A stretch of 64,000 nucleotides of DNA from an archaeon. Its GTDB lineage: Archaea > Thermoplasmatota > Thermoplasmata > JAJSAE01. Under the pieces are notes generated by a model, which was not told where the DNA came from, did no database searches, and saw only the letters and a list, made by a program, of their open reading frames with translations. The DNA lies in assembly GCA_024281315.1 (NCBI GenBank), contig JAJSAE010000075.1, positions 4,222 to 68,221 on the forward strand, in the 5' to 3' direction. Each line of letters opens with the position of its first letter. The first letter of the stretch is position 1. This document shows, piece after piece, positions 4,382 through 37,580 of the stretch. Position numbers and translations under genes: made by a program.

Positions 4382-5290
4382 ATGTCCGGCTTCGATATTA
4401 TAGCCGTAATCTCTCTCGGTCTTATCGCCGTTGGCCGCCTCTCCAATGCCAGAAAGGGGCATTTCCTCACGGGATTGGGCTGGGCTGTGTTCGGATTCTA
4501 TTGGGCACTTGAATTCCCATACTATCTTTCGATCGCAGATTTTATCAATGCAGTCCTTTCCATAGGGGCCCCGCCGGTCTTTCTTTTCCTGGCTTATCAC
4601 GAATTTTTGTCCTACGAATGGGGCGAGGACTACCGGCCGCTGTCATTCCTTGCCTCTGTTACCGCAGGAACCGGCCTTCCATATTTTTTCATAAAGTATG
4701 TTCCGTTCATTTCAAAAAACCTCATTGATGCCGTGGCATACCAGTCGGTCTGGATTACCAACCTTTTTGGCCTGAACCTCTCCGTTTCCGGCGGAGGATG
4801 GATAAACGGCGAGTATCTGGCCCATATAGACGGAGTTCCTGTAAGCATCATACTTGCGTGTACGGGAATACAGGCCATTCTTGTTGCCTTCTCTCTTATC
4901 TACTTCAGCAGAGGCGATTCCGCAGTCAAGAGGAATCTTCTGCTTCTGGTAATTCCGGTCATCTATGTGGCAAACCTCTTTCGGAATGTCATAGTCTTTC
5001 TTATTGTTGATGCTAACGGCATCTCCCAGTTTGAGTTTGCCCACGGTATCGTGGGAAAGGGACTGAGTACGCTGGTTCTTCTTATCCTCACTCTATACAC
5101 TTTCAAAAAAATCCCGCAGATGTACGACGACATCAACGGCCTGTTCGACCTGCCGTGGAGAAGGGGGCCGGGGCACGATTATGTGGCGCACTTCGATGCC
5201 ATGCTGGGTGTGAAGAGAGAGATGGATGCGGTGGGGGCAGATGGAGGAGAAGCAGACGGGCACAAAAATTCCTCTGGAGACGAGGAGTAA
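4382..5290 (+). CDS. archaeosortase/exosortase-family polytopic membrane protein
   Basis: 302 aa and multi-TM. Candidate catalytic Cys in ILACTGIQ (about residue 160) and Arg-Asn in ANLFRNV (about residue 201) are spaced about 41 aa apart, as in exosortase/archaeosortase active sites. Both downstream surface proteins have a C-terminal TM plus basic tail. Confidence 0.45.
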   Translation: MSGFDIIAVISLGLIAVGRLSNARKGHFLTGLGWAVFGFYWALEFPYYLSIADFINAVLSIGAPPVFLFLAYHEFLSYEWGEDYRPLSFLASVTAGTGLPYFFIKYVPFISKNLIDAVAYQSVWITNLFGLNLSVSGGGWINGEYLAHIDGVPVSIILACTGIQAILVAFSLIYFSRGDSAVKRNLLLLVIPVIYVANLFRNVIVFLIVDANGISQFEFAHGIVGKGLSTLVLLILTLYTFKKIPQMYDDINGLFDLPWRRGPGHDYVAHFDAMLGVKREMDAVGADGGEADGHKNSSGDEE

Positions 5291-5322
5291 CTTTTTTACC
5301 CTTTAACACATACGCTCCCTCA

Positions 5323-5988
5323 ATGAACCAGAGCAGAGTTATACTGGCCCTTGATGTTACGGACTGCGGTAGAGCGATGGAAATAGTCTCTCAGGCCTCT
5401 CCGTACACAGCCTTTGTCAAGATAAACTGGCCTATCGTGCTTGCGTGCGGGCCGGAGATAATAACCGAGATTTCAAAGATGGCCCCTGTCATATGTGACT
5501 TCAAGGTTGCGGACATACCCAACACCGACCGGCTGATAATAGAGCAGGCAGCGAAGAGGGGGGCCGCAGGCATCATTGTCCACGGATTTACCGGCTCTGA
5601 TTCCATGGAAGCCTGTGTTAAAACAGGGCATAGTGCGGGGACAAAGGTATTTGTGGTATCGGAGATGAGCCACCCGGGCGGCCGGCAGTTCACCGCGGGC
5701 CATGCGGAGGAGATTGTGAGAATGGCTGCGAAATACGGCGCGGATGGCCTCATCGCTCCTGCAACGCGCCCCGAAAGACTTGCGGAGATTAGAAGACTTG
5801 CAGGCGACATGCTCATCCTCTCGCCGGGGGTTGGTGCGCAGGGCGGCAGGGCGGCGGACAGTATAAGGGCCGGTGCCGACTATATAACCGTTGGTAGAGG
5901 CATATACACGGCTGAAAAGCCTGCAGAAGCCGCTAAAAACTATTTTGAGGATTCATTGGCCGCATACCGGGCTAAGAAAAATCTATAA
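5323..5988 (+). CDS. pyrF: orotidine 5'-phosphate decarboxylase
   Basis: Start MNQSRVILALDV (catalytic Asp-x-Lys region), then VKINWP and ICDFKVADIPNT motifs. The ORF-track ORF from 5155 is N-terminally over-extended and overlaps the upstream gene. Confidence 0.8.
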   Translation: MNQSRVILALDVTDCGRAMEIVSQASPYTAFVKINWPIVLACGPEIITEISKMAPVICDFKVADIPNTDRLIIEQAAKRGAAGIIVHGFTGSDSMEACVKTGHSAGTKVFVVSEMSHPGGRQFTAGHAEEIVRMAAKYGADGLIAPATRPERLAEIRRLAGDMLILSPGVGAQGGRAADSIRAGADYITVGRGIYTAEKPAEAAKNYFEDSLAAYRAKKNL

Positions 5989-6020
5989 ATACTTGAGGCA
6001 TATCGCTTCAAGACCGAAGG

Positions 6021-9000
6021 GTGATAATTATGGCAAAGATGCCCAAGATAAGAGCAGATAAAGAATCAAAAACGGTGGAAAAAGGACACAGGCCCCCGTT
6101 CGCCGGCCCGGTCTCTCAATGGCTGGCCGATAACTGGGGAACCCTGCTCCTGATGTTGACAATAGTCGGAATCGCCTTCTTCCTGAGGACATATTTCGGC
6201 TTCGGTCCCGCAACCCAGAACGGCTTTCTCGTATCTGGCGGGTCTGATTCCTACTATCACAAGAGAATCATAGACTATGCTCTCTCCACCGGGCATCAAC
6301 TCTTTCAGGACCCTCTTATCAATTATCCGTTGAGCACGAGGAACCCGAGGCCTCCTCTCTTTGTCTGGAGTAGTGTCATACTGGGCTATATATTCTCCCC
6401 TCTTGTAGGGAGTGTTGATGTTGCCACATGGTATGCATTCCTCTTTAACACGGCTTTCTGGGGCTCTCTGACCGTTATACCCGTCTATTTCATTACAAAG
6501 GAGTCTTTTGGCAAAAAGGCCGGGTTCATCGCCGCATTCCTGCTGGCTATAATGCCAGGCCATATTGAAAGAAGCGTATTCAGTAATGCTGACCACGACG
6601 CCATGGTGCAGTTCTTTGTGGTTCTATCGTTCTTCTTCCTTTTAAAGGCTCTCAAGACCATAAACGGTTCCAGATGGGTAAAGGACTGGAAGAAAAAGGA
6701 TAATGTAATTGACGGCTTGAAGTCCTACTTCGCTGCCAACCGCACCTCTCTTCTTTATTCCATGATGGCTGCCCTCTCCCTCTCCGCAATTGCGATGATA
6801 TGGAAGGGTTTCTCCTATGTTGTGGTTATCATCCTTGTCTACTATCTGGTGGACCTCATCATAAGCCGGTTTAAGAACAGGGATACGCTGGGAAGCACCA
6901 TGGTACTCGCAGTTTCTCTGAGCATGTTCTTCCTGCTGATATTCCCCATATACCTTAATGCCCACATTGTAAAGACATGGTATGATGTTCCGCTTCTCAT
7001 GTTCCTCGGCCTTCTGTTCATAGGGGTGATATTCACGGTGACGCGCGATTACCCTTGGACACTGGTATTCGGAATTTTCCTTATTGTGATGTCTCTCGGA
7101 TATCTCATATTTATGGTTCTACTCCCCTCCATAGGTGAGGCGATTCTTAGCGGGCAGGGCTATCTGGTTCAGAGCAAGCTGTATACCACGATTTCCGAGG
7201 CTCAGGCTCCAGGATTCAGCCACTTGGCAATGTCATTCGGCATGGTCAGTTTCTATCTGGCATTTATCGGTATTGCATGGGCTGCAATAAAGATTCCCAA
7301 GAAGGCCAGTGCGGACTTTATTTTCGTTGTTGTATGGGTGGCTGTGGCAATCTACATGGCCACTTCCGCCGGTCGTTTCGTATTCAATGCGTCTCCCGCC
7401 TTTGCTATAGCCTCCGGCTGGATACTTGCGATGGTTATAGAAGCGCTACACCTGCCCGAGATAAAGAGAAACAGTCGGGGATTTGACTGGAAACACCCGT
7501 GGCCTACCATAAAAAAGGCCATAAAGGTCCGTCATGTTATGGGAGTTATTTTCGTAGCTTTCATGATAATCCTCCCTAATGTCTGGTTTGCAGTGGATGC
7601 AGGCATTCCGTATGAAGTGAAAAGGACATACGATAACCAGATAAATGCCACCCTTCCGTCGTTTATCGCTTCGCCTAACCGCCCTGCCAACAGCATGTGG
7701 TACCTCGGAGCATTCGGTTATTCTCTCCCTCTGAATTCCAACTATTGGCCGGCAGCATGGCGGTGGTTTTCGTCTCAGGATGCCAATATATATCCCGAAG
7801 CAGACCGACCAGCATTCGTAAGCTGGTGGGACTACGGTTTCGAGGCGGCTCAGGAAGGACATCACCCCACGGTGGCGGATAACTTCCAGAACGGATATCA
7901 ATGGGCGGGAAATGTTATAACCGCACAGAACGAAAGCGAGACCATTGCGCTGTTCGAGGGAAGGATAATTGAAACCGCTGTTTTATATGGTGAGAAGCCA
8001 GAGGGCCGTACGGTCATGCCTAACATGAATCCGATTACACTGGAGCAGATAAGCGCATTGATGGATAAGTACGGTATTGACACCCAGAGAGTGATTGATA
8101 TAATAAACAATCCGCAGAATTATGTGGATGTCGTGCTTGAGAACCCAGATGTATACGGCTATTATAACTACGATCTGTCTCCAATTAATGCCAAGTATGC
8201 CATGCTTAAGGTGGAGCTCTCCAAAATTGGGGAGCAGAAAGAGGTGTGGATGTACAACGAGCTTCGCGAACTCACTGGCGACAGCATACAATACTTCGCC
8301 ATAGATTCCAGATTATTTCCATTTGATGCCAGATCCACCGGCATTTTCTATGCGCCCGTAAAACTCTCCGACAGAAGAATTGATAACGGGACAAGAAATC
8401 CCATTGATTTCTATGACATAAAGGCGGTGGATGAGTACGGCAAGGAACATGCACTCAACGAACAGCTGGATCCCAAACTCAAGATAACCTCGTACCAGAT
8501 ACATTACAAAGACATGTTCTACAACTCCATGCTCTATCGTTCCTACATCGGATACAGTGCACAAGATCTGGGGCAGGCGGATGACACCAGCATCCCCGGT
8601 CTTTCCGGCTCTCTTCAGCAACAGCGCCCCATGCAGGCCTGGAATATGAGCCATTTCAAACTGGTATATGTTACTGCGTACTACAATCCATATCCTTCGG
8701 ATCAGGTGAGGGACCATCCTGAGGCATGGACTGCTGTTTCTTACAATGATGCGGCCAAATATCAGCAGGAAATAAAGGCAGGCAACATGACAGGTGTGGT
8801 GGACATGACTCCTGGCTCCGGGTTGAAACAGGGGGTTGTCTTTGTAAAGTACTATGACGGAGCATTGATTAACGGCACAGTTAAGATGGATACCGGCACC
8901 CCCGTCCCCGGTGTACGCGTAACGGTACTGGATGAGTACGGGATTCCTCACGCCTCCACCATCTCCGATGATGCGGGGCGCTATTCTCTTGTCTCTGTTG

Positions 9001-12000
9001 CCGGGAACATAACCGTTGTTGCCTCCGTTGGCGACCCGAACCCTCTTACCAAGATTGGTGCGGATTTATATGCCACCAGAATTCATGTCTCCGAGGATCA
9101 GGCCATGAGGGTTCGTGAGGACCTGAACAACGACGGAGTGTTTGACTACAATATCAATCAGAATCTCGTGATAACCTCCGGAGGACTCAGTGGAACAGTA
9201 TTCTGGGACATGGACGGAGATAACTCGAGGAGCGCCCCCGATCAGACCATTGGCAGCGGACAATTGCTTCTTTCATACAGCAATGGAACCTTTGAAAAGA
9301 CCGTAAACATATCCGCAGACGGCCTGTTTGCCGCGGCCCACCTTATTCCGGGCAATTATCAGGCCAGCCTTCTGATGGATGGCATAACGATTCCTTCTTC
9401 GACAAAAATAGTGGTAAAAGAGGGAGAGACCGCCACGGTGAGTGTTGCCGTGCCAACGGGACATGTTGATGTTCTGGCAAGAAATACACAGGCTCAAAAC
9501 ATGAGCGTTTCCGTCTCTCTGAGGAATGTCACCACGGGAGATATAGTGGGACACATCACCACGGACATCAACGGCTCCGGCGTGATAGAGCCTCTGCTTC
9601 CGGGAAAATACGAACTCTCATCCTCAGATACCGAATATACATTTACACCTAGACTTGTTTCGGTGAGCAGTGGCCGGCATTCCGAGGTGAATGTAACTAT
9701 TTATGAAGGGGTTAATATTGCCGGTGTGGTGACTCTCAACTCGAGAGCGGTGGATGATGTAACTCTATTCTTTAACTGCAGGAACATGACCTACTCGGAC
9801 TCCGTAACCGTAAAGAACGGCATCTATTCGCTGTATTTGCCGCAGGGATATATCTTTGATATCTATTCTTTCTATGTTTCCGGCGACAGCCATTATGTCT
9901 ATGCGGGGAGTGTTTCCACCACCACTTCAATATCTATGGATATGGCACTTAAACCGGCATATCATATTTCCGGTGTGGCCCATCCGCCAACCAGCAGTAC
10001 GCAGGGCCTCAGGGGCGGAACAATCCATTTCTTCTCGGAGAACAGCGACATAAGGGCGGTAACCTATGTTGGCGGTGCCTACGATGTATGGCTCCCCGCA
10101 GGCTCGTATGATGTGTATCTCGGAGGGCCGCAGATATCTTTCACCGATAGAATTACTGTTTCCGGAGATATGGAATATAATCTCGACACGCACTACGGTT
10201 TCGAACTTTACGGATGGGTATGGCTTGATGCGGATAATAACGGAGAACTCGGCGGAAGTGAGATTCTGGATGGCGTCCCGCTCAGCATTATAAATTCGAG
10301 AGGGATTGCGGCACATGCAATCTCGAACAGAAGCAGTTATTCTGTTTACCTTGATCCTGGCGATTACACAATAAGAATTGATGACCCTCTCTATCAGAAC
10401 CTCTCGATCCCGTTTAAAATGCCTGCTATAAACATAACGAGAGACATAAAGGTGACTCTCAGAAATCTGACGGTATCGGGTCATGTTACAAGCGACGAGG
10501 GCCTCCCTCTCAGCGGCATAGATATATCATTACTGGCTCTGGATCAACACTCATCTTACCATGTCACTACAGACTCGGAAGGATATTACACCGTGGATGT
10601 AAGGCCTAACGATTACCGCCTACTGATTGATCAGAATGTTACTACCTGGATAAAGTATCTCTATGAAAATACTCTATCCGTGCCGGCCGGTTCTCACAAT
10701 CTGACAGAGGATATTACACTGAGTCAGCTGGTTTATGTGGGGGGAAATATCTCAAATCGCCCCTCCGAGAACTCAAGCACCGTTCTGCGGTTCATAGGTA
10801 AGGATAGCAGGAACATTACGGTGGAAGGGGGCGTATATGCCACATATCTGCACCCGGGCGATTACTCGGTGGAGGCGGTTTCCACCTTCAACGGCGTAAC
10901 ATACATGAATCTCTCGGTTATGACAGTCACTCTGTTCTCGTCCTCCCTCCATAATATCTCTCTTAAAACCACACATAAGCTGGAGGGCAGCATAGAATAT
11001 GGTGGACAGGTATTGAACAGAGATATAACACTGCATTTCACGACAAATAATGGCGCGTGGACGACTACCGTGACTCCGAACGGCCATTATTCCATTGCGC
11101 TTCCTGCCGGAAATTACAGTATATCCGGCGAACAGAGAGCGGTGGACATTGTGAACGGTGTGAAAAGATATGTGGTCTACAGTACCAGTGATTCGGTGAA
11201 CCTGACCTCGGATATGCTGCACACCATAAGCCTTTCCAGAGAGCTGGATAATTATACCTCCTTCGGTGTGATATCTGGCCTCAATGGCCTCGGTGTCCGG
11301 GCGAAATTGAGCTTTGTCGCTCTTAACGAAACAGCCATGGATCTCGAAGCGGAAAGCGGTTTCGACGGCTCTTATTCCGTCTCTCTTGCCCCAGGCCAAT
11401 ACTCTCTCTATGTGCTGAGGACGGAGGACAATTCTGCGGACGTAACGGTCTTCACGCAGACAACGCACGCAAATAACATGAACATCTCTTTGAAAAAAGG
11501 GCTTCAACTCAGAGGGTCCGTTTTAAGCGATACGGCCTCCCCGCTTCCCAATGCAGACATATCCGTTTCCGATTCCTCAGGGGTACTGGTGCGCGGTGCG
11601 GCCGATTCCGAGGCGAGCTATTTCATATACCTGCCGGCTGGCATCTACAATCTTTCCGCTCAGGGCTCCGTGGTTGAACATGGAAAGCAGATAAACTTTG
11701 CAGGAGAGAAGTATGTGGAACTTTTCGAGCCGCTCAGACAGGACATTGCCCTGAACAGAGATGTTGTGTACAGCTCCTCCATAAAATGGGACAGCAGGCA
11801 GGCTAGAACGGTTAAGGGCGGCGAAACGGTTAGCTATACATTTGTCGTGGAAAACACCGGCAATGTAAAGGATACATACGAGATATCCGCAAGCGTTCCG
11901 CAGGGCTGGTCTTATGAGGTAACAAAAAAGAATGTGACGCTTGATTTCGGCGAGATGAACAGCACAACAGTGGGCATTACCATTACGACCAGCAATAATT

Positions 12001-12602
12001 CTCTGGTGGAGCACAGCCCTGTTACGGTATATGCCATATCCAAGGTGAAGCCAAATACGCGCCCGGCCCAGATTCTGGACCTGAATATCGAACCGGAATA
12101 CGCCGTGGCCATTCTCGAGCAGGGCAGTGGGAACATAAGTGCCTCCTCGCTGAATTACAGGGTTCGTGTGGTGAATAACGGCAATATGAAGGACACATTT
12201 ACCCTAACCATATCAAATAAGAACGATTTAAGATCTCAGGGTTGGGATGCCGTTCTCATAGATCCTGTAACCCGTGCCGAAACCTCCGAAGCCATCGTTG
12301 ATGTGGATGCCCTCCAGGGTGCGGATATTACGATAATACTGAAGCCCATACAGACCTATCCGGCAGTTACCGCACCGGTCATACTCTATGCGGAGTCGGT
12401 GAACCACAATGTATCTTCGACCCATTCCCTCTCTCTTACTCTACCCGATCTGGCACCCTCCAGGAATTCCTTCAGTATAAGCGGGGAGGCGGTCAGTATG
12501 GTGGCCCCAGATTATTTGACCACTACTATGACACAAGTGGCCCTGCTTATAGTTCTAGCGGTGGCTGCCGTTTACCTTGCCAGAAAGAAGGGGGTGTTCT
12601 GA
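6021..12602 (+). CDS. aglB: AglB/STT3 archaeal oligosaccharyltransferase with a giant C-terminal beta-sandwich repeat extension and C-terminal TM anchor
   Basis: 2193-aa uninterrupted ORF. The N-terminal ~600 aa are multi-TM with the WWDYG motif (FVSWWDYGFE, about nt 7816). Downstream are tandem CarboxypepD_reg-like and CARDB/NEW3-like modules. The terminal hydrophobic helix (VALLIVLAVAAVYLARKKGVF) is followed by a TGA stop. Confidence 0.85.
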   Translation: MIIMAKMPKIRADKESKTVEKGHRPPFAGPVSQWLADNWGTLLLMLTIVGIAFFLRTYFGFGPATQNGFLVSGGSDSYYHKRIIDYALSTGHQLFQDPLINYPLSTRNPRPPLFVWSSVILGYIFSPLVGSVDVATWYAFLFNTAFWGSLTVIPVYFITKESFGKKAGFIAAFLLAIMPGHIERSVFSNADHDAMVQFFVVLSFFFLLKALKTINGSRWVKDWKKKDNVIDGLKSYFAANRTSLLYSMMAALSLSAIAMIWKGFSYVVVIILVYYLVDLIISRFKNRDTLGSTMVLAVSLSMFFLLIFPIYLNAHIVKTWYDVPLLMFLGLLFIGVIFTVTRDYPWTLVFGIFLIVMSLGYLIFMVLLPSIGEAILSGQGYLVQSKLYTTISEAQAPGFSHLAMSFGMVSFYLAFIGIAWAAIKIPKKASADFIFVVVWVAVAIYMATSAGRFVFNASPAFAIASGWILAMVIEALHLPEIKRNSRGFDWKHPWPTIKKAIKVRHVMGVIFVAFMIILPNVWFAVDAGIPYEVKRTYDNQINATLPSFIASPNRPANSMWYLGAFGYSLPLNSNYWPAAWRWFSSQDANIYPEADRPAFVSWWDYGFEAAQEGHHPTVADNFQNGYQWAGNVITAQNESETIALFEGRIIETAVLYGEKPEGRTVMPNMNPITLEQISALMDKYGIDTQRVIDIINNPQNYVDVVLENPDVYGYYNYDLSPINAKYAMLKVELSKIGEQKEVWMYNELRELTGDSIQYFAIDSRLFPFDARSTGIFYAPVKLSDRRIDNGTRNPIDFYDIKAVDEYGKEHALNEQLDPKLKITSYQIHYKDMFYNSMLYRSYIGYSAQDLGQADDTSIPGLSGSLQQQRPMQAWNMSHFKLVYVTAYYNPYPSDQVRDHPEAWTAVSYNDAAKYQQEIKAGNMTGVVDMTPGSGLKQGVVFVKYYDGALINGTVKMDTGTPVPGVRVTVLDEYGIPHASTISDDAGRYSLVSVAGNITVVASVGDPNPLTKIGADLYATRIHVSEDQAMRVREDLNNDGVFDYNINQNLVITSGGLSGTVFWDMDGDNSRSAPDQTIGSGQLLLSYSNGTFEKTVNISADGLFAAAHLIPGNYQASLLMDGITIPSSTKIVVKEGETATVSVAVPTGHVDVLARNTQAQNMSVSVSLRNVTTGDIVGHITTDINGSGVIEPLLPGKYELSSSDTEYTFTPRLVSVSSGRHSEVNVTIYEGVNIAGVVTLNSRAVDDVTLFFNCRNMTYSDSVTVKNGIYSLYLPQGYIFDIYSFYVSGDSHYVYAGSVSTTTSISMDMALKPAYHISGVAHPPTSSTQGLRGGTIHFFSENSDIRAVTYVGGAYDVWLPAGSYDVYLGGPQISFTDRITVSGDMEYNLDTHYGFELYGWVWLDADNNGELGGSEILDGVPLSIINSRGIAAHAISNRSSYSVYLDPGDYTIRIDDPLYQNLSIPFKMPAINITRDIKVTLRNLTVSGHVTSDEGLPLSGIDISLLALDQHSSYHVTTDSEGYYTVDVRPNDYRLLIDQNVTTWIKYLYENTLSVPAGSHNLTEDITLSQLVYVGGNISNRPSENSSTVLRFIGKDSRNITVEGGVYATYLHPGDYSVEAVSTFNGVTYMNLSVMTVTLFSSSLHNISLKTTHKLEGSIEYGGQVLNRDITLHFTTNNGAWTTTVTPNGHYSIALPAGNYSISGEQRAVDIVNGVKRYVVYSTSDSVNLTSDMLHTISLSRELDNYTSFGVISGLNGLGVRAKLSFVALNETAMDLEAESGFDGSYSVSLAPGQYSLYVLRTEDNSADVTVFTQTTHANNMNISLKKGLQLRGSVLSDTASPLPNADISVSDSSGVLVRGAADSEASYFIYLPAGIYNLSAQGSVVEHGKQINFAGEKYVELFEPLRQDIALNRDVVYSSSIKWDSRQARTVKGGETVSYTFVVENTGNVKDTYEISASVPQGWSYEVTKKNVTLDFGEMNSTTVGITITTSNNSLVEHSPVTVYAISKVKPNTRPAQILDLNIEPEYAVAILEQGSGNISASSLNYRVRVVNNGNMKDTFTLTISNKNDLRSQGWDAVLIDPVTRAETSEAIVDVDALQGADITIILKPIQTYPAVTAPVILYAESVNHNVSSTHSLSLTLPDLAPSRNSFSISGEAVSMVAPDYLTTTMTQVALLIVLAVAAVYLARKKGVF
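8890..12470 (+). repeat. protein-level tandem beta-sandwich repeats (CarboxypepD_reg-like and two CARDB/NEW3-like modules) within AglB, rich in N-x-S/T sequons
   Basis: Recurrent signatures such as GxV.D..G.PL.GA.V, VTTDSEGYYTVDVRPNDYRL, VVENTGNVKDTYEISASVPQGWSYEV and VVNNGNMKDTFTLTISN. I counted about 30 N-x-S/T sequons in the last ~1100 aa. Confidence 0.55.
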
Positions 12603-13375
12603 TGAAGGTTTCTGCGGCTCTGATTGTTATAATGGCCCTGCTGATGGTGTCTATCGTTCCCACCGGCCATGTTTCCGCAGTCGGTGATGTATTCATACGA
12701 CTTGATGGGCCCACCGCCCTTGCTACGGGAAGTTCTCAGATGTACACGCTTACCATCTCCGGCGGCCCGGCCGAACAGGGAGGAAACTTCTCCTACAGCA
12801 TAAGTCTGAGCGGCCTTAATACCACGGGAGCATCCGTATCGCCTATGACGGGAAACAGCACATCCGGTACATTTTCGCTCAATATAACCGCCCCAGACAT
12901 ACCGCAGACTCTGAAAGTAATGATTAACGCCACCTCCAGCAATTCGGCCAAGTCCGTTACGGTTGAAAAGACCTTTTCCATACGGGTACTGCGCCCCATC
13001 GTTATTTCTCAGGGCATACTCAACTCAGGGGATGTGGAGGCCAAAAATGTTCTTGTGAAGTTCTATGTGGACGACATCTTCATCGGCAGCAAAGTGGTTG
13101 ATGTTCCCGCAAAATCCAATGTTACCGTAAACTATGACTGGATTGTGGTGAACGAGAAGCCGGGCGAACATCAGGTCAAAGTGGTTATGGATGCGCAAAA
13201 TGAACTGGTGGAGCTGTCAGAAGGTAACAATGTGGCTTACCATACCATTTACATAACGGGCGGCAACACAATGGGCACTGTTTTATGGGCGACAATCGGG
13301 GGTCTGTTAGTTCTGCTGTTTCTGCTGTACAGCATGAAAGGCAAGAAAAAGAAGTATGCCAGAAAATACAGGTAG
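12602..13375 (+). CDS. secreted CARDB-domain surface (glyco)protein with C-terminal TM anchor
   Basis: Signal peptide MKVSAALIVIMALLMVSIVPTGHVSA. CARDB hallmark (VLVKFYVDDIFIG...VNYDWIV...ELSEGNNVAY). Six N-x-S/T sequons. C-terminal TM plus KGKKKKYARKYR tail. The start overlaps the aglB stop (TGATG). TAG stop. Confidence 0.7.
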   Translation: MKVSAALIVIMALLMVSIVPTGHVSAVGDVFIRLDGPTALATGSSQMYTLTISGGPAEQGGNFSYSISLSGLNTTGASVSPMTGNSTSGTFSLNITAPDIPQTLKVMINATSSNSAKSVTVEKTFSIRVLRPIVISQGILNSGDVEAKNVLVKFYVDDIFIGSKVVDVPAKSNVTVNYDWIVVNEKPGEHQVKVVMDAQNELVELSEGNNVAYHTIYITGGNTMGTVLWATIGGLLVLLFLLYSMKGKKKKYARKYR

Positions 13376-14062: not shown

Positions 14063-14683
14063 TCAGTAGAGAATCCATATGCAGGCATTGTTCCTTAGAA
14101 CCATGTTCAGGTCGGTATTGGTGACACCTGCCTTTTCGAGGAGTATTGGTTTCCACTCGTCAGGGGCTATCTTTTTGGAACCGTCAGGGGCAACCGCAGC
14201 CAGTTGTGCGTACTTAAGCCTCTTCTTCGCCACTGTTATCCTTTCCGCCGCCGCTGCTCTGAAGGTCTGACATATAATACACTGGGTATCATTGACTCCG
14301 GGCTTTACGGTTGAGTTGTAGTAATCGGCAACCTCTTTGTGCACCCTCGCAAAATCTCCTATTCTCTTGGTGTACTCCTTCCAGCCGCGCTCGAACGGAC
14401 ATTTGTGTGTTACCATACAGTGGTTCGTTTTGGCCCGAACACTTTCGAATGTAGATATTATCGACTCCCCTTTTTCGAGAGATTCAACAAAATCCTCCCA
14501 TGTCTTATATTCCTCTTCAGGCATGCTCTTGGCCAATGAGGTGGCGAGGCTGATGAGATAGTTGTTCATTCCAGCAGCACCCTGCTTATCCGCAATGTCC
14601 TCAAGGAAGAGATAGGCAGCAACATCCACCAGTGGGTTCTCTTTTATTTCATATTCCTTATGTATCTCCCTTTCTTCTATCAT
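14063..14683 (-). CDS. hypothetical Cys-motif protein, paralogue A (possible V4R-like)
   Basis: 206 aa. Shares with the adjacent gene the motifs YNSTVK..(x).DTQCIICQTF and LRNNACIWIL versus YNNSVKDTAICNFCVIHQKF and LRNYACVFAIL. Its start overlaps the neighbour's stop (ATGA). Confidence 0.5.
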   Translation of the reverse strand: MIEEREIHKEYEIKENPLVDVAAYLFLEDIADKQGAAGMNNYLISLATSLAKSMPEEEYKTWEDFVESLEKGESIISTFESVRAKTNHCMVTHKCPFERGWKEYTKRIGDFARVHKEVADYYNSTVKPGVNDTQCIICQTFRAAAAERITVAKKRLKYAQLAAVAPDGSKKIAPDEWKPILLEKAGVTNTDLNMVLRNNACIWILY

Positions 14684-15312
14684 TCTTCCACCTCCTCTTC
14701 GCCCTTAAGCCTTGCACCTTTCATAAGAATGGCAAAGACGCAGGCATAGTTTCTCAGCAGGCTTCTGACATATTCCGGATTTATTCCTATTCTCTTCAGG
14801 CTATCCCTTGCAATCTTCGTCTCACCCTTAAATCCTCTGTCTGCCAGCTGCACGCATTCGAGGGGTTGGTCGGCTACGGTTATGTTCTTGGCTACCTCTT
14901 CTCTGAACTTCTGGTGGATTACGCAGAAGTTGCAGATTGCAGTATCCTTGACGCTGTTATTGTACTCCTCGGCCACAGCGGCATCGGCCTGCGGAACATC
15001 TCCCACACTGTATCTGACCCTTTGCATGGTAGGTTCAAAGACACAGGTTTTCAGAGCATATATGTAGCCCACCACATCTCCGTCGACATCCGTTACTGCC
15101 AGATCGGTCAGTGGGGTTACATCGCCCTCAATTGAGTATGCCGTCCTTCCTTCTCTCAGGGCCACATTGAACGAGGGCCAGCCCATATAGGCTTCCTTCC
15201 CCATCCTCATGGCCAGACTTTCTCCAACTCTTTCCCAGTACTGTATAGTACCTTCCACTCCTGCTTTTTCGCTCATATCCTGTATAAGCGAGACCAGAGC
15301 CACATCAAGCAT
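14680..15312 (-). CDS. hypothetical Cys-motif protein, paralogue B (possible V4R-like)
   Basis: 210 aa. Tandem duplicate of 14063-14683 with the same conserved Cys-containing motifs. Confidence 0.5.
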   Translation of the reverse strand: MLDVALVSLIQDMSEKAGVEGTIQYWERVGESLAMRMGKEAYMGWPSFNVALREGRTAYSIEGDVTPLTDLAVTDVDGDVVGYIYALKTCVFEPTMQRVRYSVGDVPQADAAVAEEYNNSVKDTAICNFCVIHQKFREEVAKNITVADQPLECVQLADRGFKGETKIARDSLKRIGINPEYVRSLLRNYACVFAILMKGARLKGEEEVEE

Positions 15313-15334: not shown

Positions 15335-17335
15335 TTAATCACCTTTATCTTCTTTCTTCTCTTTTTTATTCTTCTTAATTCTTTTATATAGGGTTCGTCT
15401 GCCGCTCTGAACGGCGGTTGCCTCTCCCCTGTCTATAAGCATCTTTATCCCCATAAGGATATCAGTATATTTGATTCCCTTTGCCCCCCCTCTTATTCTG
15501 GCCATTGTGAGGCCGTTTTCTTCGGGCAGGATTTCTAAAATCTTTGTCAGTATCTCCTCATCGACATCTCCAATATCTTCCTCCGCTCTTTTTGCCGGCT
15601 CTTTTTTCAGCTCTTTGTCGCTATCTTTTCTGTTCTTTTTAGCTTTGACAGCCGCCTTTTCTTTATTCTTTGTTTCATCGGTTCCAGTGATTTTTTCGGG
15701 CTCCGGCGCGGGTGGCTTCTTTCTTTCCCCCTTCTTTGCTTTCGATTTCTTGGATTTTTTGCTCTTTTTCCCCCCGCCTTTTTCAGTCTTTTCAAGAACT
15801 GCCTTTTCTTGTCCCGTGCCCTTTTCTTCCGGGACCGCTCCCTTTTCGGAAACGGAAGGACTCTTTTCTACGCCCGGAACTTCTTTCGCTCTTTCCGTTA
15901 TTTCTCCTTCAGTTTTCCGCATTTCGGGAATCTCGGCCCTCTCTCCGGCAGGGCGGTAATATTTGATGGTCTTTCCTTTTTTCTTTTCGAATATGATTTT
16001 CTCATCTGCCAGCGCTTTAATCTTTTCTTTAAGCGTATCTTTATCCATAACTCCTGAGAGTTTTTTCGCCATGGCCGCGGCGCTCATCGCTTTCTCTTCT
16101 GTTTCCGGCACCGCATAATATATGAATTCGCTCTCTTCATCCAGTTCGCCCAGCCTTTTTCTGGAGGTAATGGTTTCCGTTACGCTCTCCGCTTTTTCTT
16201 CGAGACCTAGATGTTTTACGAGCATGTCTATTTTTGCCCCGTACAGCCCACCTTTCATCTCGCTCATCGCTTTCATGTTGTCAATTTCCTCACGGAGGCG
16301 CTCCTGTCCCTCTCCTATCTCTCTGAGCATTGATGCAAGCTCGTTCTTCTCTGTAGCCCCTATTTTGTCCTCGGTCAGCTTTTCCAGCTCTTTTTTGATG
16401 TCTGATATGGCAGAGTCATAGCGTAGATACATCTTCTTTTCAATGTCTCTGGCGGTCCGATCCATCTGCATTCCCTTTGCATTCAATTGCGCGGAGAGAG
16501 CGGCCACCAGCTGGTTTGTCTGGTTCACTCTCTTCTCCATCTGATCCACCTTCTCCAGAAGGAATGATGTTTTGTCCACCGTGTACTCCTGACTCTTAAT
16601 TTTTATCATGGCTCTGAAGTTTTTGGCCTTGTGATAAGGTATGTATTCCGTGAGTTTGTCCAGAAGAACATCGTATGTGGTCTGTATCTGTTTGGACGAA
16701 ATAAGCCCTTCGGACAGGCTTTTTGCGAGATTATTTGTGCGGATTCTCCGGTTGTTATCGAAACGGAAGAGTTCGCTACCACTGGTCATGAGCCTTACTT
16801 CTTCCAGAGTCTCAGTTATGACTCTCTCGAAATCCCCGGGTCCGAGGCTTTTCCAGAGTTCGCCGACAAGGTCGTCAAGTGTGGACTGATAGACGATTTC
16901 CAGGATATTCGGAGGAATTTTGGAGACATCGAGACTCTCACCGTATCCGACCTCGCTCATTATATCATCTATTTTGTTGTCTATCTTTTCGATGCTGCGT
17001 TCCACATTTTTTCTGTTTTTCTTTTCTTCCGCCTTCTCTGCTTCCATCTCGGTCTTCAGCCGCAGAAGGTGCTCTTCCCTGTTCTTAGTCTCTTCTTTGA
17101 TACTTTCTAACTCTTTTTTCACATCATTGAGATTTTTGAAGTACTCCTCGAACTGACTGTATATCGTATCAAGGCGCTCCAGCACCTCATCCTTCAGCTG
17201 CTTTATGGCATCCAATCCGTCTTCTTTCTGCTGGCTACTCTGGGAATACTCTTCGTTCTGGGGCCTTCCTTCCGTCTCTCCTACCGCATCTTTCATACAA
17301 AACTCCTCAGTTTCCGATCGAGTTCCGGAATCCAT
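15335..17335 (-). CDS. long coiled-coil protein with Lys-rich low-complexity linker and C-terminal winged-helix-like domain
   Basis: 666 aa with very high E/K content and heptad-like segments. KKSKKSKKSKAKKGERKK region, then a C-terminal LTMARIRGGAKGIKYTDILMGIKMLIDRGEA module. Its 5' end overlaps the roadblock gene's 3' end. Confidence 0.6.
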   Translation of the reverse strand: MDSGTRSETEEFCMKDAVGETEGRPQNEEYSQSSQQKEDGLDAIKQLKDEVLERLDTIYSQFEEYFKNLNDVKKELESIKEETKNREEHLLRLKTEMEAEKAEEKKNRKNVERSIEKIDNKIDDIMSEVGYGESLDVSKIPPNILEIVYQSTLDDLVGELWKSLGPGDFERVITETLEEVRLMTSGSELFRFDNNRRIRTNNLAKSLSEGLISSKQIQTTYDVLLDKLTEYIPYHKAKNFRAMIKIKSQEYTVDKTSFLLEKVDQMEKRVNQTNQLVAALSAQLNAKGMQMDRTARDIEKKMYLRYDSAISDIKKELEKLTEDKIGATEKNELASMLREIGEGQERLREEIDNMKAMSEMKGGLYGAKIDMLVKHLGLEEKAESVTETITSRKRLGELDEESEFIYYAVPETEEKAMSAAAMAKKLSGVMDKDTLKEKIKALADEKIIFEKKKGKTIKYYRPAGERAEIPEMRKTEGEITERAKEVPGVEKSPSVSEKGAVPEEKGTGQEKAVLEKTEKGGGKKSKKSKKSKAKKGERKKPPAPEPEKITGTDETKNKEKAAVKAKKNRKDSDKELKKEPAKRAEEDIGDVDEEILTKILEILPEENGLTMARIRGGAKGIKYTDILMGIKMLIDRGEATAVQSGRRTLYKRIKKNKKEKKEDKGD

Positions 17336-18087
17336 GTGTTAATACATTCGTCGGCGAGTATATCCCCTCTCAGCTTCCTAATATGATTTTCTATAACCTT
17401 TTCCATGAACATGGCCCACAGCCTGTCGGTCATGTACGCGGCGCTGGTCCCCATCTCGTTGAACGAAAGTGTGATAATTTCATCTACCTGCCCCACGCCC
17501 ACGGTTTCGGCCACTTTCTTCTTTATGAACTCCAGAATCTCCATGTTCTTCTTGTATTTTCGCGTATGTTTGAATTGTTCTACAAAGAGCTGGCGGCTCA
17601 GTCTTCTGAGTTCGTTGGCAACATCATCGGGTAGAGCTGCAAGGGTAGTGCTATCCATTCTTCTCAGTTCGAAAACATGTTTAAGTACCGCACTGCCGGT
17701 CAGAAGTCTTTTCACGGTTTCGTCCATATCGGTGGGGTCAACATCCTGTGCAAATAGAGAAGCCAGAAAGGCATTGTCCCCGATTCCGGTTATTATCAGC
17801 ACCCCTTCCTTATACTTCTCAATTGCAAGGGTCAGATTCTCGTTCTTCAGCTGTCCGCAGATATATGGTTTCTTCGCCTTCATCAGATTTAGCATAAAGA
17901 ACTGGGGCGGCGTCAGCTGCGGCGGTATGAGGGAGGCGAAAACTCTGCCATCAACGCCGATGAACATCAGTATGTCGATGTTGTTCTCTTCCCGCATATG
18001 CTTCAATTCCATGTTCAGCATGTGCTTTAGAAGAGTGACATCCTCTGCCTCGAGGGTCTTGTCCATCTTCTTAAGGGTTTTCTCCAT
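17293..18087 (-). CDS. Roadblock/LC7 (MglB-like) domain protein with C-terminal extension
   Basis: 264 aa. IDILMFIGVDGRVFASLIP...GVLIITGIGDNAFLASLF matches the Roadblock/LC7 pattern. Confidence 0.55.
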   Translation of the reverse strand: MEKTLKKMDKTLEAEDVTLLKHMLNMELKHMREENNIDILMFIGVDGRVFASLIPPQLTPPQFFMLNLMKAKKPYICGQLKNENLTLAIEKYKEGVLIITGIGDNAFLASLFAQDVDPTDMDETVKRLLTGSAVLKHVFELRRMDSTTLAALPDDVANELRRLSRQLFVEQFKHTRKYKKNMEILEFIKKKVAETVGVGQVDEIITLSFNEMGTSAAYMTDRLWAMFMEKVIENHIRKLRGDILADECINTWIPELDRKLRSFV

Positions 18088-18095
18088 TCTCTCAC

Positions 18096-18971
18096 CTACT
18101 TCAGGCCGTACGAGTCGAAGATTATTTGGAGTGCTTCCTCCGGCGAGTAGTCGTAGTTCCAGTTCTCTTTCATGGCCGTAATTCTCTCTATTACATACTC
18201 GGGAGCCTTGATGAATTTTGCCGTCTTTATGGCTTCGTCGAATATCTTGTCGTAGTCCTTCCCTTCTTCCTCCGTTTTTTCCACTGGATATGCCCTTACC
18301 ACAATACCGACTCCTCTGGAGAATATATAGGGATATACTCCTTCGCCATGCTGGGTTCCTCTCATCTTTATTATATTGAGAGTCCTGTTAAAAGCACCCC
18401 CAATGGGATAGTATTCCAGATGGAATACACCATCAGCCAGATATATCGGCAGAAGCACATCTTCTCCGATGGTCTCCCCAGGCTTGCTGTGTTCCTCAAC
18501 CGTAGCCATGACAACACCGAGTTCCTTCAGGGTGTAGAACAGTTTTCCGATGAGTTCTCTCTGTTCCAGTTTATTTTCGGTGGCCCATATGACCGGTGTC
18601 ATGGGGTCTATGACCACTCTCGTCTTTATGTCGTAATCGCTCCTTGCCTTCACCAACTGGGGCAGCTGCTCTTCTATCATCTTCTTGAAGTTTTTCCCCT
18701 TCAGGTGAATGAAGAACAGATTCTTTTCGTAGTGCTTTTCCATGTCCCAGCCCATCATCTTTGCCTCTTTCATTATCTGCTCGGGCGACTCTTCCATGGT
18801 TACATAGAGACCCTGTTCTCCGTTGTCAATACCGTGCATTAAGAACTGCATGGCAAAGGTGGTTTTTCCAGTCCCGCTGGACCCTACCACTACGATTGCA
18901 CTTTTATCTATCAGGCCCCCCTCTATCAACTGATCCAGGCCATATATTCCCGTTTTTATTCGCTCAACCAT
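18096..18971 (-). CDS. KaiC-like/RecA-superfamily ATPase (single domain)
   Basis: 291 aa. Walker A VVGSSGTGKTT, Walker B-like RVVIDPMT, overall KaiC/RadB-like layout. TAG stop immediately followed by an in-frame TGA. Confidence 0.75.
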   Translation of the reverse strand: MVERIKTGIYGLDQLIEGGLIDKSAIVVVGSSGTGKTTFAMQFLMHGIDNGEQGLYVTMEESPEQIMKEAKMMGWDMEKHYEKNLFFIHLKGKNFKKMIEEQLPQLVKARSDYDIKTRVVIDPMTPVIWATENKLEQRELIGKLFYTLKELGVVMATVEEHSKPGETIGEDVLLPIYLADGVFHLEYYPIGGAFNRTLNIIKMRGTQHGEGVYPYIFSRGVGIVVRAYPVEKTEEEGKDYDKIFDEAIKTAKFIKAPEYVIERITAMKENWNYDYSPEEALQIIFDSYGLK

Positions 18972-18994
18972 TCTCCTACCTCCTTTTATTAGTA

Positions 18995-19885
18995 TTATTC
19001 CTCATCTTCTTTATTAATCTGCTTGCTTAGAAGTTCCGCAAAACTCCTGCTCTTTTTTGCTTCTTCTGAAAGGTTCACAACCTTTTCCTCATCAACCTCA
19101 TACATGGGTTCCTTGAAAGTAGCACTCTCAAAGGCCACCGCAAAGGATTCCGAAGCGGCGATCGCGGATGTGATCTTTTGCATATCCTCCCACGGCGCTG
19201 GAAAGTCTTCTTCTGCAGAGACCTGATTCTTCATATACATGTAATATGTCTCGCCAACCTCGGTGACCCTGTGTTCTTTGTCTATAATCTTGTAATTTTT
19301 AAGGACGGAGAGGCGGTACTCCATCTCCTCCATGCCCATCTCCAGCTCTCTCGATATCTCCCCGACTCCTTTCCCGTGCCGGAGTTCTCTTATTATCTCT
19401 CTGTCTATGGTGTCCAGAGCGATTTTATATACCGCAAGAGGCTGTATGGCCACGATGAATGTGCATCTATCTGCTCCCTCATTCATGCAGATTGTCTCTT
19501 TCGCTTCCGACGGCAGTCCGAGATCCTTTGTAAAGAACTCTTCCAGCGCGTCGCTAGTTATATAGCATGTCTTTTTTCCTTTAAGCCGGTATGCTTTCGC
19601 CACGGGATTCTCAGGCACGGAGAATACATATCTGAAATTCTCTACTCTTGTTATCTCCATCCTGCCGAGACCGATGTTCTCGAAGAGGTCGGTCATGAAT
19701 TGATAGAGCGGCGTGTTCGATATTTCCGTGGCATTGGCGCACTTCAGCATCTTTCTCACTTCCGATGGCGGTACGCGAGAACTCTCCAGTGCCGCCCTAA
19801 TTGCCGAGTCTATCTTTGTAAGCTTTCCGAGAACGGCAAGCCCTTCGGCAAAGGATTCGAAGTTGCCAAGTTCCCCTTCCTTCAT
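18995..19885 (-). CDS. V4R-domain protein with HTH region
   Basis: 296 aa. KGKKTCYITSDALEEF...ETICMNEGADRCTFIV fits the V4R C...G...C.F signature. Central DREIIRELRHGKGVGEISRELEM is HTH-like. Confidence 0.55.
   Translation of the reverse strand: MKEGELGNFESFAEGLAVLGKLTKIDSAIRAALESSRVPPSEVRKMLKCANATEISNTPLYQFMTDLFENIGLGRMEITRVENFRYVFSVPENPVAKAYRLKGKKTCYITSDALEEFFTKDLGLPSEAKETICMNEGADRCTFIVAIQPLAVYKIALDTIDREIIRELRHGKGVGEISRELEMGMEEMEYRLSVLKNYKIIDKEHRVTEVGETYYMYMKNQVSAEEDFPAPWEDMQKITSAIAASESFAVAFESATFKEPMYEVDEEKVVNLSEEAKKSRSFAELLSKQINKEDEE

Positions 19886-32002: not shown

Positions 32003-32028
<26 letters not shown>
29488..32028 (-). CDS. gyrA: DNA gyrase subunit A
   Basis: 846 aa. [44 protein letters not shown] and the AAMRYTE catalytic Tyr region, plus C-terminal beta-pinwheel repeats. 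The true start may be an internal Met (MIDM/MPDD), which would reduce the overlap with the RM gene. Confidence 0.95.

Positions 32029-37580
<5,552 letters not shown>

Follow-up and report, generated by a model that had tools for sequence, protein, structure and literature searches.

A giant AglB oligosaccharyltransferase with a beta-sandwich stalk and a predicted second membrane anchor in Thermoplasmatota

AglB is the archaeal oligosaccharyltransferase (OST), which moves a lipid-linked glycan onto the Asn of N-x-S/T sequons, and belongs to the STT3/PglB family (GT-C fold, GT66 in CAZy). To our knowledge, archaeal N-glycosylation has no other enzyme that is required universally, and every form of AglB studied so far by structure or biochemistry measures ~600–1050 aa and ends in a soluble domain. 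Here, a 64,000-nucleotide stretch of Thermoplasmatota DNA (GenBank assembly GCA_024281315.1, contig JAJSAE010000075.1, positions 4,222 to 68,221; hereafter the window, whose own numbering is used throughout) was analyzed. It carries a gene for a giant form of AglB, and the domains, conservation, and neighbors of this gene are described below.

A giant aglB gene at the locus

A single unbroken open reading frame (ORF) was found on the + strand at 6021..12602, comprising 2193 codons when counted from GTG 6021. A Shine-Dalgarno-like element, GGTGA, lies 7 nt 5' of ATG 6030, and because GTG 6021 falls within this element, ATG 6030 is likely the true start rather than GTG 6021. In addition, a TATAAATA box was observed ~40 nt 5' of ATG 6030 (upstream region 5984–6030, +), and the public protein P0001 (2190 aa) is 100% identical to the ATG 6030 product. 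Residues are numbered from ATG 6030 below; in the mechanical ORF, each number is higher by 3. The initial annotation, made from the DNA letters and their translations, had described an uninterrupted 2193-codon frame that joins a polytopic STT3 core with the WWDYG motif to a sequon-rich stalk. The frame was confirmed, and the peptide that had been quoted from it, VTTDSEGYYTVDVRPNDYRL, was found in its translation. The gene and its parts are as follows.

6030..12602, + strand: giant aglB, 2190 aa from ATG 6030, stop codon 12600–12602 (basis: ORF list, match to P0001, upstream GGTGA)
6030..7604, + strand: residues 1–525, predicted cytoplasmic N-terminal tail and 13-helix GT-C transmembrane (TM) domain (Pfam STT3, hydropathy, AlphaFold2 helices)
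nt 6237–6257, + strand: GGSDSYY, residues 70–76, invariant in 60 aligned sequences
nt 6588–6599, + strand: ADHD, residues 187–190, invariant in 60 aligned sequences
nt 7188–7199, + strand: TISE, residues 387–390, with T387, I388, and E390 invariant in 60 aligned sequences
7605..8816, + strand: residues 526–929, predicted extracellular globular domain with WWDYG and the conserved sequon N872 (Foldseek best match, Archaeoglobus fulgidus AglB)
nt 7824–7838, + strand: WWDYG, residues 599–603, present in 120/120 homologues and invariant in the 60-sequence alignment
8817..9173, + strand: stalk domain D0, residues 930–1048, CarboxypepD_reg/transthyretin-like sandwich with a D-x-N-x-D-G loop (Pfam CarboxypepD_reg, E 3.5e-10)
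9174..11753, + strand: stalk domains a–j, residues 1049–1908, ten transthyretin/CarboxypepD_reg/SdrD_B-like beta-sandwiches, fast-evolving and sequon-rich, with N1741
11754..12449, + strand: stalk domains k and l, residues 1909–2140, predicted membrane-proximal CARDB/NEW3/DUF11-like sandwiches with NTGN motifs
12450..12599, + strand: linker (2141–2161, low model confidence), TM helix (2162–2186), and basic tail RKKGVF

The N-terminal core is a complete AglB/STT3

The N-terminal part of the protein matched Pfam STT3 at residues 75–464 (E 1e-22) and the NCBIfam model archaeo_STT3 (TIGR04154) at residues 43–643 (E 6e-63, 213.4 bits; model positions 2–578 of 831). Both hydropathy and the AlphaFold2 helices (H36–H525) placed 13 TM helices in residues 1–525. 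The AlphaFold2 model of residues 1–1100, with a predicted local distance difference test (pLDDT) value of 83.9 and a predicted template modeling (pTM) score of 0.77, consisted of these helices and a mixed alpha/beta globular domain. When this model was compared with the PDB using Foldseek, A. fulgidus AglB ranked first (7e9s/3wak, E 9e-27, TMt 0.67), followed by STT3A/B and PglB. Moreover, phmmer also returned A. fulgidus AglB (875 aa, E 4e-15) as the best solved sequence relative. The giant protein is far longer than any solved AglB or STT3 found, as the first reading of the sequence had pointed out for characterized enzymes.

Alignment to 3WAJ paired GGSDSYY with GGNDPWYY, ADHD with NDHH, and TISE with TIAE. 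Behind WWDYG, the segment DNFQN (617–621) and E635 were also invariant in the 60-sequence alignment. The giant ORF is a complete AglB/STT3 in which all four catalytic motifs are invariant. The enzyme is predicted to be catalytically competent, transferring a lipid-linked glycan to the Asn of N-x-S/T.

The stalk is a chain of beta-sandwiches that ends in a hydrophobic helix

The limits of the stalk domains were set by combining two AlphaFold2 models, a domain hidden Markov model (HMM), and per-domain Pfam scans. The model of residues 1000–2190 (pLDDT 86.1) was all-beta, with 12 sandwiches besides D0, and ended in the linker and helix. Across the whole ORF, Pfam detected CarboxypepD_reg in four stretches (E 1e-37), which bears out the tandem modules of this type described initially, together with SdrD_B, NOMO_5th, and weak NEW3/DUF11-type matches. 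Two CARDB/NEW3-like modules had also been proposed. The corresponding beta-sandwiches are present in the AlphaFold2 model, and the homologue P0171 has CARDB above cut-off (26.5 vs. 22.7) at the matching position, but in the window's own protein the Pfam scores of domain k stay below threshold (NEW3 22.8 vs. 24.4; DUF7507 21.8 vs. 27) and domain l has no Pfam match. The terminal domains additionally gave a weak NCBIfam match to choice_anch_T. The stalk is acidic (pI 4.8), and a single Cys, C1250, occurs in all 2190 residues. Residues 1031 and 1400 mark two D-x-[DN]-x-[DN]-G loops, which are conserved in 65/119 and 41/119 sequences, respectively, and whose motif resembles that of calcium-binding loops.

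A domain HMM gave self-hits within the stalk, with weak inter-domain scores. No tandem repeats were found in the stalk-coding DNA, indicating that the domains are old and diverged. A recent repeat expansion or variable adhesin-type repeats were rejected on these two grounds and on the constant stalk length given below.

The relation of the stalk to human NOMO was also evaluated. NOMO is a flexible 27-nm rod of immunoglobulin (Ig)-like folds with a TM anchor, whose length sets the intermembrane distance of the endoplasmic reticulum (ER) (PMC8327139); it belongs, as a subunit, to the BOS complex (PDB 9c7v), which the literature places in the ER multipass translocon. With the family profile, human NOMO2 (9c7v_B) was the first match in the PDB (E 1.7e-25), ahead of A. 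fulgidus AglB. A single-sequence search with the stalk also put human NOMO2 first, weakly (E 0.006), and the Pfam NOMO_5th and NOMO1-like models matched both the stalk and its homologues. When the stalk model was searched with Foldseek, NOMO2 (9c7v) did not appear in the top 50. Orthology was rejected, as profile positions 1052–1270 (2–3 domains) align to several NOMO regions without colinearity. The relation is thus one of domain-family homology and shared architecture, and NOMO was kept as an analogue. An alpha-2-macroglobulin or thioester protein was rejected as well: the structural TM-scores were ≤0.12 and bMG3 was below cut-off, and this reading fails because there is one Cys and no thioester CxEQ or thioester domain.

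Beyond the core, the protein has one further hydrophobic segment (hydropathy 2.17), namely the helix at residues 2162–2186, which is followed by RKKGVF as in the helix and RKKG tail originally noted. The C-terminus reads ...APDYLTTTMTQVALLIVLAVAAVYLARKKGVF, with the C-terminal peptide ...AAVYLARKKGVF. Given an N-terminus inside, 13 TM helices, and the positive-inside rule, the stalk is predicted to lie outside, the final helix to cross the membrane, and the basic tail to lie inside. The protein would therefore be anchored at both ends, and the predicted topology agrees with the earlier suggestion of an enzyme tethered in this way.

The giant form is conserved across a large Thermoplasmatota clade

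A search of 5.8 billion clustered proteins was performed and the 120 best homologues were taken. All 120 were 2117–2196 aa long, with 95–100% query coverage and 34–38% identity, and five closer ones at 76–100%. A C-terminal TM helix with a basic tail was present in 119 of them, the exception being annotated as partial. The MAFFT alignment of 119 homologues was colinear over 2376 columns. Moreover, the enzyme–stalk junction (residues 901–1000) was conserved like the catalytic core, with an identity to the query of 0.47–0.49; the part of D0 within it (residues 951–1000) reached 0.47, about the level of the enzyme core. The length after WWDYG was 1526–1600 aa in 120/120 close homologues and rose to as much as 2079 in more distant members. 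The constant length and the lack of DNA repeats suggest that the stalk is a stable, ancient scaffold rather than a variable repeat.

The gene was also sought by a genome scan with one genome per GTDB species, in which 426 stretches were confirmed to encode a relative; locus counts below refer to the best 80. All 80 were Thermoplasmata or Methanomassiliicoccales records, and where the fetched sequence included both ends of the gene, the ORF was ~2080–2270 aa long in nearly every locus. The carriers comprised free-living lineages (sediment, peat, and bioreactor) and gut lineages, among them the rumen Methanomassiliicoccales metagenome-assembled genome (MAG) RumEn M1 (locus L009). The cultured Methanomassiliicoccus luminyensis also carries the giant form (P0085, WP_081579967.1, 2173 aa). 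Finally, exhaustive HMMER with the core alone returned 302 representatives of 50%-identity clusters at E ≤ 1e-30, and 146 of these were examined. Core identity fell to 31%, and 84 of the 146 were 2000–2775 aa long. Among these 84, a C-terminal TM helix was found in 83 and a basic tail in 78, the TM sequence itself being little conserved except for its hydrophobicity and the basic tail. Four giants of 2400–2775 aa (P0127, P0171, P0182, and P0204) had WWDYG moved to residues ~700–820, which implies an N-terminal extension or core insertion on top of extra stalk domains.

The giant therefore appears to be the standard AglB in a large Thermoplasmatota clade and is not a one-off, although an unusual architecture had been envisaged, and the proposed comparison of orthologue lengths supports a giant size. 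These data also answer the concern that an assembly error or frameshift had fused an ordinary AglB to a separate surface-protein gene. The same unbroken, colinear ORF occurs in hundreds of independent assemblies and in an isolate genome, more than 100 full-length homologues being colinear, and the junction is well conserved. The database also holds entries of 950–1700 aa, and some of these are themselves the broken ones: the 954-aa P0212 shares a cluster with a 2201-aa member, and its contig also has 663- and 597-aa pieces. At least some short entries are thus broken giants. A frameshift fusion is refuted at the family level, and the probability that we still assign to an artefact is negligible.

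Many giants are named 'carboxypeptidase regulatory-like domain-containing protein' or 'glycosyltransferase family 39 protein' in RefSeq/GenBank, and WP_081579967.1 carries only the former name. As such names omit the OST function, name-based surveys could miss the OST in these genomes. A literature search, including one for WP_081579967, found no description of a giant, double-anchored AglB; many subscription papers lay outside this search, so that an earlier mention is possible. The AglB family is known, and CarboxypepD_reg fusions exist in shorter, anchorless forms (1100–1290 aa); the giant, partner-coupled form with two predicted anchors is widespread in databases and apparently undescribed.

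The stalk is rich in sequons and evolves unevenly

ORF residues 931–2193 contained 31 N-x-S/T sequons against 14.75 expected, and ORF residues 1094–2193 contained 28 against 13.4. Expectations were obtained from composition-preserving shuffles (n = 2000; z ~4.7–4.8), of which 0/2000 reached the observed count. The excess is real and ~2-fold. The initial count of about 30 sequons in the last ~1100 aa was thus nearly right, whereas its 'several-fold' enrichment was too high. Two sequons are conserved in position, N872 in the globular domain (109/119) and N1741 at the start of domain i (118/119), and five further positions are kept in more than half of the 119 sequences. Because of the 2-fold excess and the two conserved sequons, it is plausible that the stalk is glycosylated by its own enzyme, as the idea of a heavily N-glycosylated stalk had implied.

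Nonsynonymous divergence (dN) was calculated between the window and L001, the closest genome. Only dN was used and no ratio to synonymous divergence (dS), because dS was saturated (1.35 to >3, and undefined in one segment). The values were as follows.

TM core: dN 0.067
Globular domain: dN 0.047
D0: dN 0.12
Domains a–j: dN 0.31–0.32
Domains k–l: dN 0.12
Linker and TM helix: dN 0.14

The 119-sequence alignment showed the same trend, with the mid-stalk less conserved than both stalk ends. Constrained membrane-proximal ends and a variable middle are the pattern expected of an arch with an exposed apex.

A fast-evolving mid-stalk would also suit an adhesin or sensing appendage, that is, a surface-exposed stalk which binds a host, a partner cell, or a substrate and is merely carried by AglB. 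Adhesins often contain domains of the CarboxypepD_reg, SdrD_B, and CARDB types, and the PDB profile matches include BaTIE, UafA, and SdrD. However, domain number and order are fixed over deep divergence, no recent repeats are present, and membrane anchors are predicted at both ends. Furthermore, free-living as well as gut lineages carry the gene, no thioester or lectin-type domain was detected in the Pfam scans, and the protein has one Cys. An adhesin role is unlikely on this evidence.

A coupled partner gene and other neighbors

Three neighboring genes on the same strand bear on the giant gene or its setting.

12602..13375, + strand: partner gene, 257 aa, with a signal peptide, a choice-of-anchor-V-like domain, CARDB, a TM helix, and a polybasic tail
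5314..5988, + strand: pyrF (NCBIfam PRK13813, 274 bits), adjoining aglB upstream in most related loci (synteny only, no functional link claimed)
4382..5290, + strand: archaeosortase A (ArtA), two genes upstream of aglB (TIGR04125, 127.8 bits vs. cut-off 75)

The partner and the ArtA gene are features beyond the initial annotation. The partner protein matched Pfam CARDB (E 1.9e-10) and, weakly, NCBIfam choice_anch_V, and its ectodomain contains 3.0 sequons per 100 aa. A relation to the terminal domains of the stalk was considered and rejected, as BLASTP found no similarity. The ATG of the partner overlaps the aglB stop (TGATG). A partner of like organization lies directly 3' of the giant aglB in 59/80 related loci, and in ~48 of those 59 a start codon shares 1 or 4 nt with the aglB stop. 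The two genes appear to form a conserved, translationally coupled module, which points to a complex of AglB with the partner. The MAG MFD01299.bin.2.50 has two giant aglB loci: L036 encodes 2164 aa and has neither the pyrF neighbor nor the CARDB partner, and L030 has both neighbors and an ORF broken at 1717 aa.

This module bears on the possibility that the stalk, its TM helix, and the partner are built-in accessory subunits of the OST. Such subunits would capture or shield nascent translocated chains, choose substrates, or link the enzyme to the Sec translocon, and the cell would need them to glycosylate efficiently and not to build its envelope. They would be comparable to the type I accessory subunits with lumenal domains in eukaryotic OST, or to NOMO in the BOS/multipass-translocon complex. 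The fusion is obligate, the coupled partner repeats this topology, with an ectodomain before a TM helix and a basic tail, and D0 and the junction match the catalytic core in conservation. Domain-level homology to the translocon-associated NOMO and a graded series of AglBs of 1100–1290 aa, with 2–3 CarboxypepD_reg domains and no anchor, also speak for such subunits. However, the poor conservation of the C-terminal TM helix suits a generic anchor more than a subunit with specific helix packing. Most of the stalk, ten of its 13 domains, is fast-evolving and lacks a conserved surface motif. Moreover, 13 domains are far beyond the need for reaching the active site. Overall, we regard a role as accessory subunits as possible but doubtful.

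The ArtA gene raised a different question, namely whether the C-terminal helix is a sorting signal that is removed by archaeosortase A, leaving a lipid-anchored or released stalk. The order of linker, hydrophobic helix, and basic tail resembles C-terminal sorting signals, and the terminal domains gave weak 'choice-of-anchor' matches. However, no PGF precedes the helix in the giant AglB or in the family consensus, no PGF-CTERM (TIGR04126) match was obtained at E ≤ 0.1, and a search of the window for a PGF-type ORF end found none. In addition, tblastn (E ≤ 1e-5; flanks up to 10 kb where the contig allowed) detected ArtA near aglB in L001 alone among the 80 loci, so the adjacency is limited to the window and this closest relative. 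The core also stays, at 213.4 bits, below the curated 450-bit cut-off of TIGR04154, the ArtA-associated STT3 subfamily. The giant AglB was rejected as an ArtA substrate because the PGF motif is lacking and the adjacency is not conserved, and a sorting signal of this kind is highly improbable.

Other genes of the window were recorded as side observations. Just downstream of the aglB–partner module, two ORFs of 206 and 210 aa lie side by side at 14063–15312 (-); they are paralogues with a mutual identity of 30% (E 2e-23) and no Pfam or NCBIfam family. They are 62–97% identical to copies in L001, L047, L050, L066, L072, and L077, genomes in which AglB core identity is just 42–47% (L001: 89%), so that the paralogues are unusually conserved. 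At 15335–19885 (-), a 666-aa K/E-rich ORF and a 264-aa ORF, neither with a Pfam match, adjoin a KaiC-like ATPase (18096–18971) and a V4R-domain protein (18995–19885). At 29488–37412 (-), gyrB (35499–37412) and gyrA (29488–32028) are split by a 1175-aa Eco57I/MmeI-type restriction-modification fusion ORF (32003–35530), which overlaps gyrA and gyrB at its two ends.

Proposed role of the stalk in the cell envelope

A clade-wide AglB of more than twice the usual size, with two predicted anchors and a partner gene, suggests a second, structural or organizational job. Reports on the envelope of related archaea are relevant here. Methanomethylophilus alvi Mx-05 has a single membrane with no cell wall or S-layer seen (PMC10673518), and ISO4-H5, also single-membraned, likewise has neither S-layer nor cell wall (PMC5011839). 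The Thermoplasmatales have no S-layer and show an unordered exterior protein layer ~20 nm thick, whose composition is not identified (PMC12448462). An S-layer-integrated OST, as first proposed, does not agree with cultured relatives that are reported to be without an S-layer or cell wall, and no S-layer family was among the Pfam or NCBIfam matches of the giant AglB.

Two membranes have been reported for M. luminyensis (PMC4243693, PMC6098224), which would allow the stalk to act as an inter-membrane tether or ruler, with the core in the cytoplasmic membrane and the C-terminal helix in the outer membrane, fixing the width of a pseudo-periplasm. The constant stalk length and the precedent of NOMO as a ruler fit this arrangement. 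However, under the positive-inside rule, a helix with a polybasic tail behind it suits the cytoplasmic membrane, and archaea have no known route by which an alpha-helical anchor could enter an outer membrane. The ultrastructure of M. luminyensis also comes from data that have been called poor (PMC4243693). Furthermore, M. alvi and ISO4-H5 are single-membraned, and the rumen MAG RumEn M1, whose own ultrastructure is not known, still has the giant gene. A tether between two membranes is thus very unlikely.

We infer instead, with a probability of roughly one in two, that the protein is an active AglB which carries in cis a glycosylated, double-anchored, NOMO-like arch and which, with its CARDB partner, serves as a fixed-height surface scaffold or coat where an S-layer is absent. 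In this model, ~1,630 extracellular residues would form an arch or hairpin with both ends in the cytoplasmic membrane. D0 would dock on the catalytic domain, and domains k and l would sit at the membrane beside the partner protein. The exposed mid-stalk would be N-glycosylated by its own enzyme or by neighboring copies. The arch itself would not be catalytic; surrounding the site of glycoprotein synthesis, it would act as a glycoprotein scaffold or an element of the surface coat with a fixed height. With 13 sandwiches of ~3.5–4.5 nm each, the contour length is estimated at ~45–55 nm and the arch at up to ~20–25 nm high. The giant AglB would accordingly be a candidate for the exterior protein layer of S-layer-less Thermoplasmatota, in a clade that includes human-gut and rumen methanogens, and the 'molecular ruler' hypothesis modeled on NOMO is testable.

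Several points weigh against this scaffold. The stalk model has a pTM of 0.41 and does not separate an arch from a rod or a compact bundle. Foldseek against the PDB with the stalk gave generic multi-Ig matches (alpha-2-macroglobulins and BaTIE) with TM-scores ≤0.12, and the likeness to NOMO is at the domain level and not colinear. The ~20-nm layer was reported from Thermoplasmatales, which may or may not encode the giant AglB. OST is normally not abundant and may add little mass to a surface coat. In addition, the DK/MI motif that completes the Ser/Thr pocket was not located, as neither D-x-x-K nor M-x-x-I could be placed in the sequence without structural superposition.

A broader proposal is put forward only tentatively. 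The giant AglB and its CARDB partner might form a self-contained archaeal OST holo-complex, whose NOMO-like, self-glycosylated arch would be part, possibly the height ruler, of a ~20-nm unordered exterior protein layer that takes the place of the S-layer in wall-less Thermoplasmatota. If so, the enzyme that glycosylates the surface coat would belong to the coat. STT3 and NOMO both occur around the ER translocon of eukaryotes, and a prokaryotic precedent would then exist for physically pairing STT3 with a rod of the NOMO type.

Comparison with known systems

The closest characterized enzyme is AglB-L of A. fulgidus (3WAJ/3WAK/5GMY/7E9S), which shares with the giant AglB the 13 TM helices, the acidic motif of external loop 1, the D-x-D/H motif, TIxE in external loop 5, WWDYG, and the globular domain. 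Unlike the giant, it has 875 aa and ends at the globular domain, whereas the giant runs on for ~1260 residues via 13 sandwiches to a second TM anchor. A conserved, apparently translationally coupled bitopic partner also distinguishes the giant AglB from the A. fulgidus enzyme.

Among NCBIfam models, the core matches TIGR04154 ('oligosaccharyl transferase, archaeosortase A system-associated') best, and an ArtA gene lies nearby in the window. In contrast to this subfamily, the giant AglB scores 213 bits against the 450-bit cut-off, matches 578 of 831 positions, and has no PGF-CTERM signal.

For the stalk, NOMO1/2/3 (9C7V) offers the closest architecture, in which a long chain of transthyretin/Ig-like sandwiches leads to a single TM helix at the C-terminus and a short tail in the cytoplasm. 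Unlike the stalk, NOMO stands alone as a type I protein, made with a signal peptide and not fused to STT3, and its partners are NCLN and TMEM147.

Finally, mid-size AglBs of 1100–1290 aa (e.g., P0220, MBW3582444.1) have the same core, with 35–38% identity over residues 30–655, followed by CarboxypepD_reg domains; P0220, P0233, and P0260 are members of this class among the representatives. In contrast to the giant, they have 2–3 CarboxypepD_reg domains, no C-terminal TM helix, and no CARDB-like end domains, and they are ~1000 residues shorter. These mid-size enzymes may represent an intermediate or a parallel form of the stalk.

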